Source of the DNA: a virus
Taxonomy: Duplodnaviria > Heunggongvirae > Uroviricota > Caudoviricetes
Length of the DNA stretch: 50,069 nt
Direction: 5' to 3' (one strand)
IMG/VR virus record: IMGVR_UViG_641522650_000006
A model generated the notes under the pieces. It was not told the origin of the DNA. It saw only the letters and a program-made list of their open reading frames with translations, and made no database searches. Made by a program: the position numbers and the translations under genes. Positions 3,125-21,549 of the stretch are shown piece after piece (positions within the stretch are counted from its first letter, which is position 1; every line of letters starts with the position of its first letter).

Positions 3125-3447
3125 ATGACTAAAAATACTCGTTTTTCCCCCGAAGTCCGTCAACGGGCAGTCCGTATGGTTCTGGAAAGTCAGGGCGAAT
3201 ATGACTCACAATGGGCGACAATTTGTTCCATTGCTCCAAAGATTGGCTGTACGCCGGAGACTCTGCGTGTCTGGGTTCGCCAGCATGAGCGGGATACCGG
3301 GGGCGGTGATGGAGGGCTCACCACCGCTGAACGTCAGCGTCTGAAAGAGCTGGAGCGTGAAAATCGTGAACTGCGCCGCAGTAACGATATCCTTCGCCAG
3401 GCTTCCGCTTATTTTGCGAAGGCGGAGTTCGACCGCCTCTGGAAAAA

Positions 3448-3451
<4 letters not shown>
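3125..3451 (+). CDS. IS629 OrfA
   Basis: 108-aa [24 protein letters not shown]... Confidence 0.85.
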
Positions 3452-4738
<1,287 letters not shown>

Positions 4739-6981: not shown

Positions 6982-7155
6982 TATTATCTCCCGTATGCTT
7001 TACGCAGAAATAAGCAGGCAATATGCATGTAATTTTCACCGTATTGTGCAATAAGGCAGGCGGTTAGACTGGCCCCCTGAATCTCCAGACAACCAGTATC
7101 ACTTAAATAAGTGATAGTCTTAATACTAGTTTTTAGACTAGTCATTGGAGTACAG

Positions 7156-7521
7156 ATGATTGATGTCTTAGGGCCGGAGAAACGCAGACGGCGTACCACA
7201 CAGGAAAAGATCGCAATTGTTCAGCAGAGCTTTGAACCGGGGATGACGGTCTCCCTCGTTGCCCGGCAACATGGTGTAGCAGCCAGCCAGTTATTTCTCT
7301 GGCGTAAGCAATACCAGGAAGGAAGTCTTACTGCTGTGGCCGCCGGAGAACAGGTTGTTCCTGCCTCTGAACTTGCTGCCGCCATGAAGCAGATTAAAGA
7401 ACTCCAGCGCCTGCTCGGCAAGAAAACGATGGAAAATGAACTCCTCAAAGAAGCCGTTGAATATGGACGGGCAAAAAAGTGGATAGCGCACGCGCCCTTA
7501 TTGCCCGGGGATGGGGAGTAA
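7156..7521 (+). CDS. insC: IS2 OrfA (InsC)
   Basis: [29 protein letters not shown]... Confidence 0.85.
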
Positions 7522-8384
7522 GCTTAGTCAGCCGTTGTCTCCGGGTGTCGCGTGCGCAGTTGCACGTCATTCTCAGACGAACCGATGACTGGATGGATGG
7601 CCGCCGCAGTCGTCACACTGATGATACGGATGTGCTTCTCCGTATACACCATGTTATCGGAGAGCTGCCCACGTATGGTTATCGTCGGGTATGGGCGCTG
7701 CTTCGCAGACAGGCAGAACTTGATGGTATGCCTGCGATCAATGCCAAACGTGTTTACCGGATCATGCGCCAGAATGCCCTGTTGCTTGAGCGAAAACCTG
7801 CTGTACCACCATCGAAACGGGCACATACAGGCAGAGTGGCCGTGAAAGAAAGCAATCAGCGATGGTGCTCTGACGGGTTCGAGTTCTGCTGTGATAACGG
7901 AGAGAGACTGCGTGTCACGTTCGCGCTGGACTGCTGTGAGCGTGAGGCACTGCACTGGGCGGTGACTACCGGCGGCTTCAACAGTGAAACAGTACAGGAC
8001 GTCATGCTGGGAGCGGTGGAACGCCGCTTCGGCAACGATCTTCCGTCGTCTCCAGTGGAGTGGCTGACGGATAATGGTTCATGCTACCGGGCTAATGAAA
8101 CACGCCAGTTCGCCCGGATGTTGGGACTTGAACCGAAGAACACGGCGGTGCGGAGTCCGGAGAGTAACGGAATAGCAGAGAGCTTCGTGAAAACGATAAA
8201 GCGTGACTACATCAGTATCATGCCCAAACCAGACGGGTTAACGGCAGCAAAGAACCTTGCAGAGGCGTTCGAGCATTATAACGAATGGCATCCGCATAGT
8301 GCGCTGGGTTATCGCTCGCCACGGGAATATCTGCGGCAGCGGGCTTGTAATGGGTTAAGTGATAACAGATGTCTGGAAATATAG
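7479..8384 (+). CDS. insD: IS2 OrfB (InsD) transposase
   Basis: 301-aa ORF overlapping insC; DDE integrase-like region. Confidence 0.85.
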
Positions 8385-8511: not shown

Positions 8512-8877
8512 TTATTGCGCTAATTCTTTTTCGGCAGCAGCTTTTGTATACTCACATGCAAAACTCAGAATTTCGCTGCCGAGTGTTTTCGTTTCGTGAT
8601 TACTGGACATATGTAATACCTGTGTTGCATGCAATAAATGATAAACATTTACCGCAAATGAATCAGGCTCCAGACAAATGCCTTCGTAATTATCTTGCTG
8701 TGAGGTTGTTTCTCTCATTGCTCCTGAAGTGCATGCGAGCCTGTTTTTGACAATTCTCTTTTCTCTAATCACTATATCGGCAACATCTATTGCCTTTACA
8801 ACCTCCGGGAGAAGTTCCGGGTTTGTATAATCAAAGTCATCAACATGGAGAACAGTTATGTTTTCGAACTTTTTCAT
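8512..8877 (-). CDS. hypothetical protein, AT-rich gene
   Basis: 121-aa ORF in visibly AT-rich DNA, second gene leftward of the repressor. Confidence 0.4.
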   Translation of the reverse strand: MKKFENITVLHVDDFDYTNPELLPEVVKAIDVADIVIREKRIVKNRLACTSGAMRETTSQQDNYEGICLEPDSFAVNVYHLLHATQVLHMSSNHETKTLGSEILSFACEYTKAAAEKELAQ

Positions 8878-9005
8878 GGCTTCCTCAGCTGACTTATATG
8901 TTCTGCTATATAGCGAGTCTCAGAAGTGTTTTCATATTGAGACTGTTTCCGCAATGATTGATAAAAATGTTCGCATGTACCTTGAAGGGCGAAGCGGCGA
9001 TTATG

Positions 9006-9509
9006 TCACCATTGGTATTGGTTCTTCCGCAGAAGAGCTTCGCGAGATAAGGGGCAAACTTGTTGAGATGCGTCATGGTGTTGCTGCTCCTCACTTTTTG
9101 GTTGCTCCGGAGGAGTAACCTCACCAGTTAACAGCCACATCGGATCGCAGCCAAGAATATTTGCCAGTGGGATAAGCATACTGATAGTTGGTTCATACTC
9201 TCCGCTCTCCCACTGGATGATAATTTCTTCATCGAGATCGAGCAGCCTGGCGAGTTCGGCGGTTGTTAAGCCGCAGGCTTCGCGTTGGGTGCGAAGACGG
9301 TTGTTGATTGCAGAATTTTTGTTCTGTAAAAGCATTGCTGACGATAGCTTTCTGGATATGCTATTTGTCATATCCCATGCCAGTCCTGCGCATGACTCTA
9401 TATCGCTAGAGAGTGTAGCATCAGGTGTTGCTTTTGCTATTAGTGTAATGAGGCTGCCGAGGTTTTTCAGTTCTTCGAGACAGTCAAGAGTTGTAGCTTT
9501 ATTGATCAT
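9006..9509 (-). CDS. XRE-family HTH protein with uncharacterised N-terminal domain
   Basis: C-terminal HTH (LRTQREACGLTTAELARLLDLDEEIIIQWESG); first gene leftward of cI. Confidence 0.5.
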   Translation of the reverse strand: MINKATTLDCLEELKNLGSLITLIAKATPDATLSSDIESCAGLAWDMTNSISRKLSSAMLLQNKNSAINNRLRTQREACGLTTAELARLLDLDEEIIIQWESGEYEPTISMLIPLANILGCDPMWLLTGEVTPPEQPKSEEQQHHDASQQVCPLSREALLRKNQYQW

Positions 9510-9611
9510 GAGATGATACCTCAGTTACGAACTTTGTTTTATGGTAACTAAGGTGTCAAGGTGTGGCAAGTGATTTTGATACTTTGGTTTCTTTTTGTGT
9601 TTTGTGTCTGG

Positions 9612-10268
9612 TCAGAAAATATCCCACCTGGCATCAACCACAACACCTACTATTTCGCAATCATTGTCCATTTCTATGATTGGATATTGTGGATTAAGGG
9701 GCTTTAGAAACGCCTTTCCCATGTCAGAAATATATTTTTTGAATGTTGCTTCATTGGTGGATTTTTTTCTGGCGATGACGTAACACCCTGAAAAAACTTC
9801 TTTATCTGGGTTGACAAGGATCGACATTCCTTCAGGAAATGTTATTCCTACGGGCGAAGTCATTGAGTCTCCGTGCACTTCCAGCCAGAACCCCCTCTCA
9901 CCAGCGTATTTTACAGAATGCCTCCAATTATCCTGATCATACATGTTGTAGTCATCACCAGAAGTTGCGAATAATCCTGCCTGAACCCAGTTAATTACAG
10001 GGTAAGAGTGTGCTGTGTCTCTCTGTGGGCAGCTCTTAACATTATTTTCCCAATGCTTATCTTTTTCATCTCCGTTCTGAAGCCACTGCGGTGAACACCC
10101 CAGTGCAGCTGCAACTTTAAAAAGGGTGTCACCGTTGAAACTTTTTGTAAGGCCTTGCTCGGCTTTACTGATTGCAACTCTGGTGATCCCAGCTTTTTTA
10201 GCCAACGCATCTTGTGTTAACCCAGCTTTTTGCCGTGCGTTGATGAGACGTTCACCTAAAGACTTCAT
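9612..10268 (-). CDS. CI-like prophage repressor (N-terminal HTH plus LexA/S24-like peptidase domain)
   Basis: MKSLGERLINARQKAGLTQDALAKKAGITRVAISKAEQG... then S24-like C-terminus with ...GDSM... and K residues. Confidence 0.75.
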   Translation of the reverse strand: MKSLGERLINARQKAGLTQDALAKKAGITRVAISKAEQGLTKSFNGDTLFKVAAALGCSPQWLQNGDEKDKHWENNVKSCPQRDTAHSYPVINWVQAGLFATSGDDYNMYDQDNWRHSVKYAGERGFWLEVHGDSMTSPVGITFPEGMSILVNPDKEVFSGCYVIARKKSTNEATFKKYISDMGKAFLKPLNPQYPIIEMDNDCEIVGVVVDARWDIF

Positions 10269-10379
10269 TTTTCTTCTCCTCTCATGGCTGTTGATACGAA
10301 AGTAACAGAATTTCTTGATACTTTGGAATCCCGCGGTTAACATCGTTGAATAACAAAGTATCTGGTGTGAGACTAAAGA

Positions 10380-10607
10380 ATGACCCTTTATGAAATATTA
10401 AAAATTCAATTTAAAACCAATGCCGCTATTGGTCGCAGGTTCCCAAAGAAAGGAAGGCCTCGTGGCAGTCAAGGTGTTGGAAAGTGGAAAACGCGAGGTG
10501 TTCCGGAGGATGTTGCCATTCTTTGTCATCTGGATCCGAGCATTCCATATACACACCCAAGGCTAGCGAATACAGAAGATGACAAGCCCACAGGAGACCA
10601 ACAATGA
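10380..10607 (+). CDS. small protein in cro position
   Basis: Divergent from repressor; its stop overlaps the next start (ATGA); sequence is not Cro-like. Confidence 0.25.
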   Translation: MTLYEILKIQFKTNAAIGRRFPKKGRPRGSQGVGKWKTRGVPEDVAILCHLDPSIPYTHPRLANTEDDKPTGDQQ

Positions 10608-11311
10608 ACACCGCAATTTTTAACGGCAAAGCATCCATGACCAGCGTTGAGATCGCAGAGCTGGTGGGAAGCCGACCAGATAGTGTTAAGAGAACTATTG
10701 AAACACTGGCTAAAAAGGGAATCATCCAATTTCCACAGACTGTGGAAATTGAGAATAAACAATCACTTGGGCCTCGCCGATTTTCTAGCGCGTATGTATT
10801 CGAAGGTGAACGAGGTAAGCGCGACAGCATCATTGTCGTCGCACAGCTCTGTCCTGAATTCACAGCTCGCCTGGTAGATCGCTGGCGCGAACTGGAAGAA
10901 CAGATCCGTAAGCCAATGAGCGAAATCGAAATGGTTGCCGCGATGGCTCTTGAAGCCGTTCGCCAACAGAAACGGATCACTCAGGTGGAAGAAAAAGTCA
11001 GCCACGTTGCTGAAACAGTCGAGCAAATTAAAAAGGGCACTATTCGTGAGGGCTATGCCGGATATCGCCAACTGAAAGCAAAAACCGGTTTGTCAGATGA
11101 TAAATGCCGCAATCTGGTGAACGCCTATCAAATTCCTACAGACACCCATGAGTTCATGACGCCGGACAGATTGTTGCCACGTCGCGCAATTGTTGCTGTG
11201 GAACCGTTTATGGCTGCTTTTTATCGGGTTATGGAGGAAGCAGAACCGCGAGGGACTCGCTGGTATCACCCGAAAATGGGGTTATTTCAGGTTATTGGTT
11301 GGCAGCGGTGA
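10604..11311 (+). CDS. phage regulatory protein (Rha/antirepressor-like)
   Basis: N-terminal HTH-like MTSVEIAELVGSRPDSVKRTIETLAKKG. Confidence 0.45.
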   Translation: MNTAIFNGKASMTSVEIAELVGSRPDSVKRTIETLAKKGIIQFPQTVEIENKQSLGPRRFSSAYVFEGERGKRDSIIVVAQLCPEFTARLVDRWRELEEQIRKPMSEIEMVAAMALEAVRQQKRITQVEEKVSHVAETVEQIKKGTIREGYAGYRQLKAKTGLSDDKCRNLVNAYQIPTDTHEFMTPDRLLPRRAIVAVEPFMAAFYRVMEEAEPRGTRWYHPKMGLFQVIGWQR

Positions 11312-11716
11312 AAAAAAGCCGGGAGTAACCCGGCTCACTCAACATCAATAACGGGGAGCTGTTTCGCATAAAACGGCTCCGAAACATCCAAGAACAGTTC
11401 TAAAGATATCAGCAGCTATATGATCATTTCAAGACCAAATATTGATTCTGCAATTTCGGGACGTTACACTGTCTCCGCACCTTATAAAGCGGGTGCCGGG
11501 ATTGGCGTCCTGAAATTCGCACATGCGCATAACCGCGCTTCAGCGGTTTTTTTGCGCACGTTTCCTCACATCCAAATTATGGTGGGGCGTGCAGGGGCAT
11601 CGAAAGATGCGCCGGGGTCATGTGCGACCGGTTACGCCAACCCTGTACGTCTCACCACCTCTGTGATTGGCGTCCCATGTGGTGAGTTTTCAAAATTCGC
11701 ACATGAGGATGTCACT

Positions 11717-12268
11717 ATGGCAACCACCCCTACCCAAACTCACCCTAAAATTGATGTTATCCATGGGAAGGCTGTTACCTCTTCTTTGGCCGTTGCCGAA
11801 TATTTCTGCAAGCAGCACAAAAACGTTATTCAAAAAATCCAGACGCTTGAGTGCTCTGTTGAATTCACTGAGCTGAATTTTCAGCCCAGTGATTACACCG
11901 ATTGCACAGGCCGCAAACTACCTTGCTATCAAATCACCCGCGATGGCTTCGCGTTCCTTGCTATGGGCTTTACTGGCAAACGTGCAGCCCGGTTCAAAGA
12001 GGCATACATCAACGCCTTTAACCAGATGGAGAAGAATTTATCTGGTGCTGACGCGGTTGATATGTCAGCTGTCGCACGAAACGCCAGAGGCGTATACCTG
12101 CATTTGCGTGAAATCCATCAAATCTGGACAAGCCAGCTTTATCCAATGCTTAAGGCCGTTGAATCTCCGCTGGCTAGCAAACTGTACGACCGTGTTGGTG
12201 ATGCTGTTTTTGGCGCTGCACTTGTTGATTCCAGGCTGAATGGTTCTGACAAGGAGGTTCGCCCATGA
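11717..12268 (+). CDS. Rha-family phage regulatory protein
   Basis: AEYFCKQHKNVIQKI...YQITRDGFAFLAMGFTGKRAARFKEAYINAFNQME matches Rha signature. Confidence 0.6.
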   Translation: MATTPTQTHPKIDVIHGKAVTSSLAVAEYFCKQHKNVIQKIQTLECSVEFTELNFQPSDYTDCTGRKLPCYQITRDGFAFLAMGFTGKRAARFKEAYINAFNQMEKNLSGADAVDMSAVARNARGVYLHLREIHQIWTSQLYPMLKAVESPLASKLYDRVGDAVFGAALVDSRLNGSDKEVRP

Positions 12269-20413: not shown

Positions 20414-20486
20414 GGCCCTTTAGCTCAGTGGTGAGAGCGAGCGACTCATAATCGCCAGGTCGCTGGTTCAAATCCAGCAAGGGCCA
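20414..20486 (+). tRNA. tRNA with CAU anticodon (ileZ-like Ile2, or Met)
   Basis: Acceptor GGCCCTT/AAGGGCC, TAGCTCAGTGG D-arm, GGTTCAAATCC T-arm. Confidence 0.7.
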
Positions 20487-20496
20487 CTATCACATA

Positions 20497-20570
20497 CCGC
20501 CATTAGCTCATCAGGAAAGAGCGCCAGCCTTCGAAGCTGGTTGCGCGGAGTTCGGGTCCCCGAAGGCGGT
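20497..20570 (+). tRNA. tRNA-Arg (UCG), argN-like
   Basis: Cloverleaf with anticodon loop CTTCGAA; one acceptor and one T-stem mismatch. Confidence 0.6.
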
Positions 20571-20586
20571 TCATTATCTGTATCCT

Positions 20587-20663
20587 GCGTTGTTAGCTCA
20601 GCCGGACAGAGCAATTGCCTTCTAAGCAATCGGTCACTGGTTCGAATACAGTAGAACGCGCCA
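20587..20663 (+). tRNA. tRNA-Arg (UCU), argO-like
   Basis: Anticodon loop CTTCTAA, T-loop TTCGAAT, encoded CCA end. Confidence 0.7.
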
Positions 20664-20678
20664 CACTTATTTTCCCTG

Positions 20679-20702
20679 GCTCGCTTTTGCGGGCTTTTTT
20701 TT
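20679..20702 (+). terminator. rho-independent terminator after tRNA cluster
   Basis: GCTCGC-TTTT-GCGGGC followed by eight T. Confidence 0.45.
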
Positions 20703-20953
20703 AAATGTCTCACAATTCAGGCGGTTGACTGTTGTCTGGTTTGCGGGGAGTTTGTTAAAAGAAACTGGCATGGTGAATCCCCCTGTGCGGAGGGGCAATC
20801 AGCGAGTAGGTATATGGGATAATCGCAGATTCAGGTGCTGGTACTGAATTCACCGGGAGGCACCCGGCACCATGCAATGGCACATAGCGCCACTCTCCAG
20901 CCCCTCTCCGGAGGGGCTGTTTATATTGATTTTGTCAGATGTGAGTAAACTCC

Positions 20954-21310
20954 TTATGGACTTTGTTGTTTTAGCCCATAAGGACATATTTGCAGAGTGC
21001 AACGGTTATTAAAGCATTCATTCAATACGTTATCTGTATTTGTAGGGCATTCCTGGCTGTTTTTGATTAAATTCCAGAATGTTTTATTGAATGGTACTAC
21101 GTTGTAAATGGTTACAGGTAGCACTTTGTTATTGAGCATGATGCCTGTGTGAGTCAGTGTAAATATACTTTCAGGAGGTAAGAAAGCATCCGATTGATAC
21201 CAGATTATTAATTTTATTTTACTCCATATGACTGAAAAAGATATTCCGCATGATGGCTGGATAACTGTATCAATCACAATCCACTTCATTTGGTTTCCTT
21301 GTTTATGCAT
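20954..21310 (-). CDS. hypothetical ORF in AT-rich segment
   Basis: 118-aa ORF antisense to late transcription; may be non-coding. Confidence 0.25.
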
Positions 21311-21549
21311 TGCTGGTGATGTTCTGAAAAGTATAAATGATATTTTTGAATGTAAACCATAGAGCAGAATTATTTTTCTGATGTTGTTTATTGTTTATTT
21401 AAATGCAGGGTGGTTTATATCTCGTCTTGTAGTTTATCCATGCATATCTGCTTGATGATGAGGTTTTTATTTAAGGTATGGTTTTGTGTTTTTTCTGTAT
21501 TACATGTCAGGTATTTTAAAGAATCATTTTTCAGATGGTGGAAAGAACC

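Follow-up and report, generated by a model that had tools for sequence, protein, structure and literature searches.

When a 12-bp sequence recurs on both sides of a phage repressor gene, are its copies operators of a lysis/lysogeny switch and, if so, which protein would read them? The question arises in a 50,069-bp stretch of tailed-phage DNA (the window, by which we mean the whole stretch that was analysed), where the initial annotation had placed four copies of a motif within 9570-10375, one downstream of the repressor gene and three on the other side of it, a layout that it likened to OL and OR flanking cI. All four copies are there, each of them displaced by 1-9 nt from the position first given. 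The exact copies of TTGATACTTTGG are located at 9576-9587 and 10315-10326 (rather than 9575-9586 and 10306-10317) and are the only two in the window; the related copy TTGATACGAAAG is found at 10291-10302 (not 10282-10293) and the inverted copy AACAAAGTATCT, the reverse complement of AGATACTTTGTT, at 10352-10363 (not 10357-10368). The motif does flank the gene on both sides, and the one-plus-three arrangement has to be replaced by three sites per side.

Exact matches to TTGATACTTTGG averaged 0.00 in 100 dinucleotide-preserving shuffles, none of which contained two. When up to three mismatches were allowed, the window had 36 matches against 40 expected from the shuffles, i.e., no enrichment, and since such matches are no commoner than by chance the 12-mer itself was rejected as the functional unit; a dyad fits the data better. 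Each copy corresponds to the left half plus the spacer of an imperfect dyad 14 bp long, GATAC-N4-GTATC, and the signal is the exact 12-mer pair together with this dyad structure. We propose as the putative functional unit a dyad of 14-16 bp, (T)GATAC-N4-GTATC(A), often extended to TGATAC-N4-GTATCA.

The repressor gene and its neighbours

The genes concerned are the following.

9006-9509, minus strand: first gene of the leftward operon, 167 aa, HTH_3 (DicA-like, Pfam 3.8e-11), at the position of lambda N
9612-10268, minus strand: cI-type prophage repressor gene, 218 aa, HTH_3 + Peptidase_S24
10380-10607, plus strand: gene in the cro position, 75 aa, divergent from the repressor gene, predicted all-alpha Cro-like protein

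The repressor has an N-terminal HTH_3 domain (Pfam, 3e-15) and a C-terminal Peptidase_S24 domain, the self-cleavage domain (3e-22), the combination of HTH and LexA-like S24 that characterizes the repressor of a lambdoid switch, and it matches the lambda repressor (PDB 3bdn, E 2.5e-33, residues 12-215) over its full length. The Ala97-Gly98 cleavage site and the catalytic Ser135 and Lys178 do not vary among the aligned relatives, and its recognition helix is ITRVAISKAEQG. The start at 10268 is preceded by GAGGAGAAGA and agrees with the starts annotated in phiP27 and in Stx phages. A 243-aa ORF starting at 10343 was discarded as an artefact of ORF listing, the 218-aa form being the one that has a ribosome-binding site and matches the starts of the homologues. 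Judged by these protein matches, the gene between the motif clusters is a true homologue of lambda cI.

The divergent 75-aa neighbour had no Pfam or NCBIfam match, and its PHROG is labelled 'unknown'. Its AlphaFold2 model (pLDDT 87.6) suggests that it folds like Cro proteins of the P22 and N15 type, and Foldseek pointed in the same direction with matches that were without significance. It would be the small, divergently encoded Cro-type protein of a lambdoid switch, and in the relatives its gene invariably adjoins that of the repressor. A basic insertion, FPKKGRPRG (residues 21-29), separates its helices 2 and 3, which match the HTH pair of P22 Cro; the insertion has the conserved pattern P-x-x-G-x-x-R, in which P22, G25 and R28 are invariant in 34 homologues.

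The 167-aa HTH protein belongs to PHROG 4739, labelled as of unknown function, and partially matches a family named 'CII-like regulator'. The gene also contains a mosaic junction near 9123, where the identity to phiP27 begins; phage PhiR49_2 matches 9000-9296 at 100% identity. The 3' end of the gene varies among relatives, the product being 138 aa long in phiP27 and, in Stx1a phages, 216 aa.

Predicted operators and promoters

Three predicted dyads were found in the 111-bp repressor/Cro-like intergenic region (OR, at start-to-start distances of 24 and 32 bp) and three in the 102 bp just 3' of the repressor gene (OL), and each cluster overlaps a consensus-type promoter that points away from the repressor gene.

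10315-10343, plus strand: PR, predicted rightward promoter, TTGATA-17-TAACAT, 9/12 in a consensus scan
9569-9541, minus strand: PL, predicted leftward promoter, TTGCCA-17-TACCAT, 9/12 in a consensus scan
10293-10298, minus strand: candidate PRM -10 hexamer, TATCAA, inside site A, read from the sequence and weak
10293-10306: predicted OR site A, GATACGAAAGTAAC, nearest to the repressor gene, in the position of lambda OR3
10317-10330: predicted OR site B, GATACTTTGGAATC, overlapping the PR -35 hexamer, in the position of lambda OR2
10349-10362: predicted OR site C, AATAACAAAGTATC, over the expected start point, in the position of lambda OR1
9578-9591: predicted OL site 2, GATACTTTGGTTTC, 8 bp upstream of the PL -35 hexamer, including an exact copy of the 12-mer
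9544-9557: predicted OL site 1, GTAACTAAGGTGTC, covering the spacer of PL and extending over part of its -10 hexamer
9515-9528: predicted OL site 3, GATACCTCAGTTAC, downstream of the predicted PL start and overlapping the ribosome-binding site of the first PL gene

Thus the region contains both elements expected of a lambdoid switch at the DNA level, namely several dyads in the repressor/cro intergenic region that overlap PR (starting at 10293, 10317 and 10349) and a second cluster (9515, 9544 and 9578) over a leftward promoter beyond the repressor gene. PR is predicted to drive the Cro-like gene and, after it, Rha/Ant-like and replication genes. Its -35 hexamer falls within site B, where TTGATA is both -35 hexamer and operator half-site, and PL is overlapped by OL-1. 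Aligned relatives preserve the hexamers of both promoters. In the OR intergenic region, no leftward promoter (PRM) emerged from the consensus scan.

The dyads are concentrated here. GATACNNNNGTATC with up to one mismatch has four matches in 50 kb, three of them inside this 800-bp stretch, and with up to two mismatches 5 of the 17 matches in the window fall in the two intergenic regions, which together make up ~213 bp. We also scanned the whole window with a 16-bp weight matrix built solely from the sites of three other prophages (L069, Providencia and Klebsiella). The top five scores were five of the six proposed sites, the exception being site C (15th); taken individually, the three best sites alone scored above the mean best shuffled score and one alone above the highest shuffled score.

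In OR, site A has a single mismatch to the dyad and 12 of its 14 positions are invariant over 23 sequence variants, and site B includes the exact 12-mer TTGATACTTTGG. Site C, which starts 6 bp past the PR -10 hexamer and includes the inverted copy AACAAAGTATCT, has two mismatches and is the weakest match among the six sites in the window. It reads GATAAC in most relatives and is the perfect GATACTTAAGTATC in Stx2_12E129. Its start is AATAA here and in a minority of relatives, GATAA in most and a perfect GATAC in some, and the operator over the PR start point would therefore be weakened in this window. In OL, site 2 (one mismatch) has the best weight-matrix score of the window, 19.8, and at the same position L069 carries the perfect GATACTAAAGTATC. 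Site 1 differs from the dyad by three mismatches here and by two in most relatives (GTAACTAAGGTATC), with 12 of 14 positions invariant and matrix rank 4. Site 3 has two mismatches, 13 of 14 invariant positions and rank 5; it is present in Providencia and not evident in Klebsiella, and its conservation may come partly from the ribosome-binding site GAGGT. A seventh candidate at 10368-10383 (TGAGACTAAAGAATGA, matrix score 9.8) was not counted, since Stx1-type relatives do not conserve it and it overlaps the start codon of cro. No RNA element reached the Rfam gathering level in 9000-11400.

Conservation, recognition helices and alternative readings

The region 9123-10668 has 96.0% nucleotide identity to phiP27 (NC_003356) and 85-86% to several Stx1a/Stx2a prophages. 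The repressor is 98% identical in the phiP27 locus L053, and near-identical repressor, Cro and intergenic DNA place the window in the phiP27 immunity type. In the alignments with phiP27 and the Stx phages, the operator blocks and the promoter hexamers are islands of conservation. We collected 66 loci from viral contigs with repressors 86-100% identical, giving 23 distinct OR and 28 distinct OL sequences, in which no variation was seen at 49 of 60 half-site positions, compared with 43 of the 129 remaining intergenic positions (Fisher p 4e-10, a descriptive value, since the sequences are related and the columns were treated as independent). Perfect 14-bp palindromes appear in two relatives (Stx2_12E129 at site C and L069 at OL-2).

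Conservation of the motif with the repressor in relatives, the check suggested with the initial annotation, was carried beyond E. coli through prophages of Providencia and Klebsiella, reached via the Cro-like protein, and one of Yersinia, reached via a genome scan.

This window (E. coli): helix ITRVAISKAEQG; three OR and three OL sites
Providencia: repressor 53% identical; helix VTRVAISKAEQG; three OR and three OL sites, same motif
Klebsiella: repressor 63% identical; helix VTRVAISKAELG; three OR and two OL sites, same motif
Yersinia similis: repressor 52% identical; helix VSRVAISKAELG; three OR sites of the form GAnAC-N4-GTnnC

The sites are kept wherever the recognition helix is kept, in four genera, and other dyads replace them where the helix differs, so that both the conservation and the pairing of motif and repressor are borne out. 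The helix is [IV]TRVAISKAE in Klebsiella and Providencia, with spacings of 24/32 bp, and VSRVAISKAE in Yersinia, with 24/35 bp; overall, the distance from A to B is 24 bp in 7/7 lineages and that from B to C is 32 bp in 6/7. The helix VSRMAISKIEMG is paired with the dyad TAAAC-N4-GTTTA, and the P22-type helix VSNAAISQWERS with ATTTAAG..CTTAAAT. Among 80 species-level relatives with 30-52% identity, at least two GATAC-type sites upstream of the repressor gene were found in the Yersinia one (VSRVAISKAE) alone. Operator sequence co-varies with recognition helix across E. coli, Klebsiella, Providencia and Yersinia, as it should in a lambdoid switch.

These data bear on what else the repeat could be. 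The idea that a short A/T-rich word recurs by accident where the intergenic DNA is itself A/T-rich finds some comfort in the counts at three mismatches given above, which do not exceed the shuffled expectation. It is refuted by the shuffles for the exact pair, by the matrix, whose top five matches of 50 kb fall within ~200 bp, and by conservation across genera at fixed spacing, and we give it a probability next to nil. The repeat could also be made up of promoter elements, with TTGATA as a -35-like and TATCAA as a -10-like hexamer kept for RNA polymerase, and indeed PR has TTGATA (10315-10320) as its predicted -35 hexamer and the half-site resembles TTGACA. However, the copy at OL-2 is not a predicted hexamer (TTGCCA, the -35 hexamer of PL, lies 8 bp from it), in every site conservation reaches the partner half of the dyad across the 4-bp spacer, two relatives have perfect 14-bp palindromes, and heteroimmune relatives keep the promoter layout and swap the dyad together with the recognition helix, all of which makes this reading very improbable.

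More akin to the reading that we prefer is the possibility that the sites are truly regulatory and are read by another protein, either the 167-aa HTH protein or the Cro-like protein alone, the S24 repressor being non-binding. A second HTH_3 gene does lie immediately beside OL, OL-3 overlaps the ribosome-binding site of that gene as an autoregulatory site might, and the Cro-like gene always adjoins the repressor gene. Yet the Klebsiella relative keeps OL and OR sites with no HTH gene downstream of PL, which argues that the S24 repressor and not the 167-aa protein reads the operators. As for the Cro-like protein, the motif changes with the helix of the S24 repressor while this protein remains 68% identical, and three sites at 24/32 bp between a divergent repressor and cro are the classical cI/Cro layout; moreover, that Cro shares the sites is expected if the repressor reads them, and so is no alternative to it. 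We regard another reader as decidedly unlikely. It has to be said that the 68% identity of the Cro-like protein between immunity types with GATAC and with TAAAC cI half-sites also goes against the repressor-based reading.

With the sites, their dyad symmetry and clustering, their conservation and co-variation with the helix, their overlap with consensus-type promoters and the protein homologies all directly observed, this is very probably the immunity region of a phiP27-type lambdoid prophage, in which repressor dimers would bind GATAC-N4-GTATC operators in OR and OL as a lysis/lysogeny switch. The likeness to OL and OR flanking cI that had been proposed therefore holds, with a cI homologue between the clusters, a Cro-like divergent neighbour and predicted outward promoters overlapped on both sides.

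The distribution of the module is consistent with this. Among 5426 complete E. coli genomes, 195 (3.6%) carry the 941-bp immunity module, always in the chromosome and at most once per genome, when ~7 double carriers would be expected under independent carriage and 0 were seen. This fits immunity, i.e., the exclusion of homoimmune superinfection.

Comparison with known switches and prophage context

The likeness to lambda is extensive. It includes the homology of the repressor, strongest in the C-terminal domain, the divergent gene in the cro position and the three OR and three OL dyads over outward early promoters. One adjacent OR pair is 24 bp apart, which is the distance between OR1 and OR2 in lambda. 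There are also clear differences. The predicted operator is the 14-bp GATAC-N4-GTATC instead of the 17-bp lambda site, the second OR spacing is 32 bp, and OL comes directly after cI, with no rex genes in between, so that OL and OR are separated by ~0.7 kb compared with ~2.4 kb in lambda. The repressor gene has a ribosome-binding site, unlike that of lambda, and its mRNA would therefore be leadered. The N-terminal domain of the repressor is of the 434/P22 HTH_3 type, the Cro-like protein is predicted to be all-alpha like P22 and N15 Cro and not to have the lambda Cro fold, and the first PL gene encodes an HTH protein, not N. Lambda proper, understood as having N first behind PL and cII and cIII present, does not include this region, whose membership in the broader cI/Cro class is unaffected. 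In P27, N, cII and cIII were not identifiable, and its cI and Cro ('Cro12') were typed as variants of their own, with no operators given (PMC3430580).

As to other phages, the N-terminal domain of the repressor matches 434 Cro, P22 c2 and the 434 repressor (E 1e-8 to 1.5e-5). The 434 operator is 14 bp long, with a centre that is not contacted, and the length is the same in the phiP27-type region. P22-type relatives (46% identity) carry known-style ATTTAAG..CTTAAAT operators at the same positions, but with helix VSNAAISQWERS where the window has ITRVAISKAEQG and with different half-sites; because both helix and half-site differ, the P22-type and phiP27-type systems would be heteroimmune. The closest system is phiP27 itself (NC_003356 / AJ298298, genes L10-L12, the repressor being L11), with which the window shares gene order and all six sites, as it does with the Stx1a/Stx2a prophages of the LC5678xx series. 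PhiP27 differs in having an extra reverse-strand gene, L13, after L12, and in the 3' end of the gene that corresponds to the 167-aa HTH gene of the window.

The records of phiP27, of the LC5678xx series and of E. coli in RefSeq carry no operator annotation, and RefSeq calls the repressor/Cro pair 'LexA family protein' and 'hypothetical protein'. A search for the operator strings in open-access full text, which did not cover the 2002 phiP27 genome paper, retrieved only unrelated eukaryotic and primer matches, none of them in a phage context, and the Stx-phage literature that we examined gives no operator sequence, though cI and cro genes are typed there.

The surroundings of the switch contain other features. 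Some 1.1 kb downstream of it, two Rfam matches at gathering level were found on the plus strand (11477-11662), an isrK Hfq-binding RNA at 11477-11553 (62 bits) and a C4 antisense RNA at 11575-11662 (75 bits), both in the 5' part of an ORF with Ash and Rha domains (11420-12268). It looks like an antisense-controlled antirepressor module of the P1 immI type and, if so, would add a second level at which immunity is controlled. The leftward operon contains an IS3-family element (transposase ORFs 7111-7521 and 7479-8384, ~130 bp past the ORF at 8512-8877), which we take to be IS2 from its InsC/InsD sequences. Other insertion sequences are an IS3-type element (3406-4338) with an ALIL frameshift pseudoknot at 3406-3522, an IS110-family transposase in two inverted copies (27588-28763 and 36276-37451) and an IS66 transposase (29056-30375). 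The prophage is full of such elements and may be defective or rearranged. Finally, in 20414-23415 a NanS-p-like sialate esterase gene comes after a tRNA-Met/Arg/Arg cluster and the sRNA STnc100; in the interval, where Stx phages have stxAB, there is no ORF of at least 150 aa, and the region looks like the late region of an Stx phage without stx.

If the switch works as its layout suggests, in the lysogen the repressor at OR-B, over the -35 hexamer, would shut PR and keep the Cro-like, Rha/Ant-like and replication genes off, with OR-C, over the start point, adding to the repression. Repressor at OL-1, perhaps also at OL-2 and OL-3, would shut PL, and OR-A, the site nearest to the repressor gene, is placed for autoregulation of PRM, a maintenance promoter that would be weak. 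Stimulated by RecA, the repressor would cleave itself at Ala97-Gly98, which would split the DNA-binding from the dimerisation domain and lead to prophage induction, after which the Cro-like protein would occupy the same operator region. In this scheme we infer binding and its affinity order, the position and activation of PRM, cooperativity, looping between OL and OR over ~0.7 kb and Cro binding from the sequence.

For the Cro-like protein we can also conceive a more particular role, although we consider it rather unlikely. The protein may represent an unclassified Cro subfamily whose insertion reads the A/T-rich 4-bp centre or the AC-N4-GT core and not the outer bases of the half-sites. If true, this would explain why Cro stays ~68% identical across immunity types with different cI half-sites, and the specificity of Cro would be partly uncoupled from that of cI in this group of phages.

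The switch is an ordinary lambdoid one and conceptually adds nothing new about how such switches work. Its value is in defining the predicted operator GATAC-N4-GTATC and the 3+3 layout for the phiP27 immunity group, which is found in Stx1a-, Stx2a- and Stx2e-converting phages. The operator could be used to predict homo- and heteroimmunity among Stx prophages, for immunity typing and in the design of reporter or induction studies, and the RefSeq pair of 'LexA family protein' and 'hypothetical protein' could be reannotated as a cI/Cro switch.
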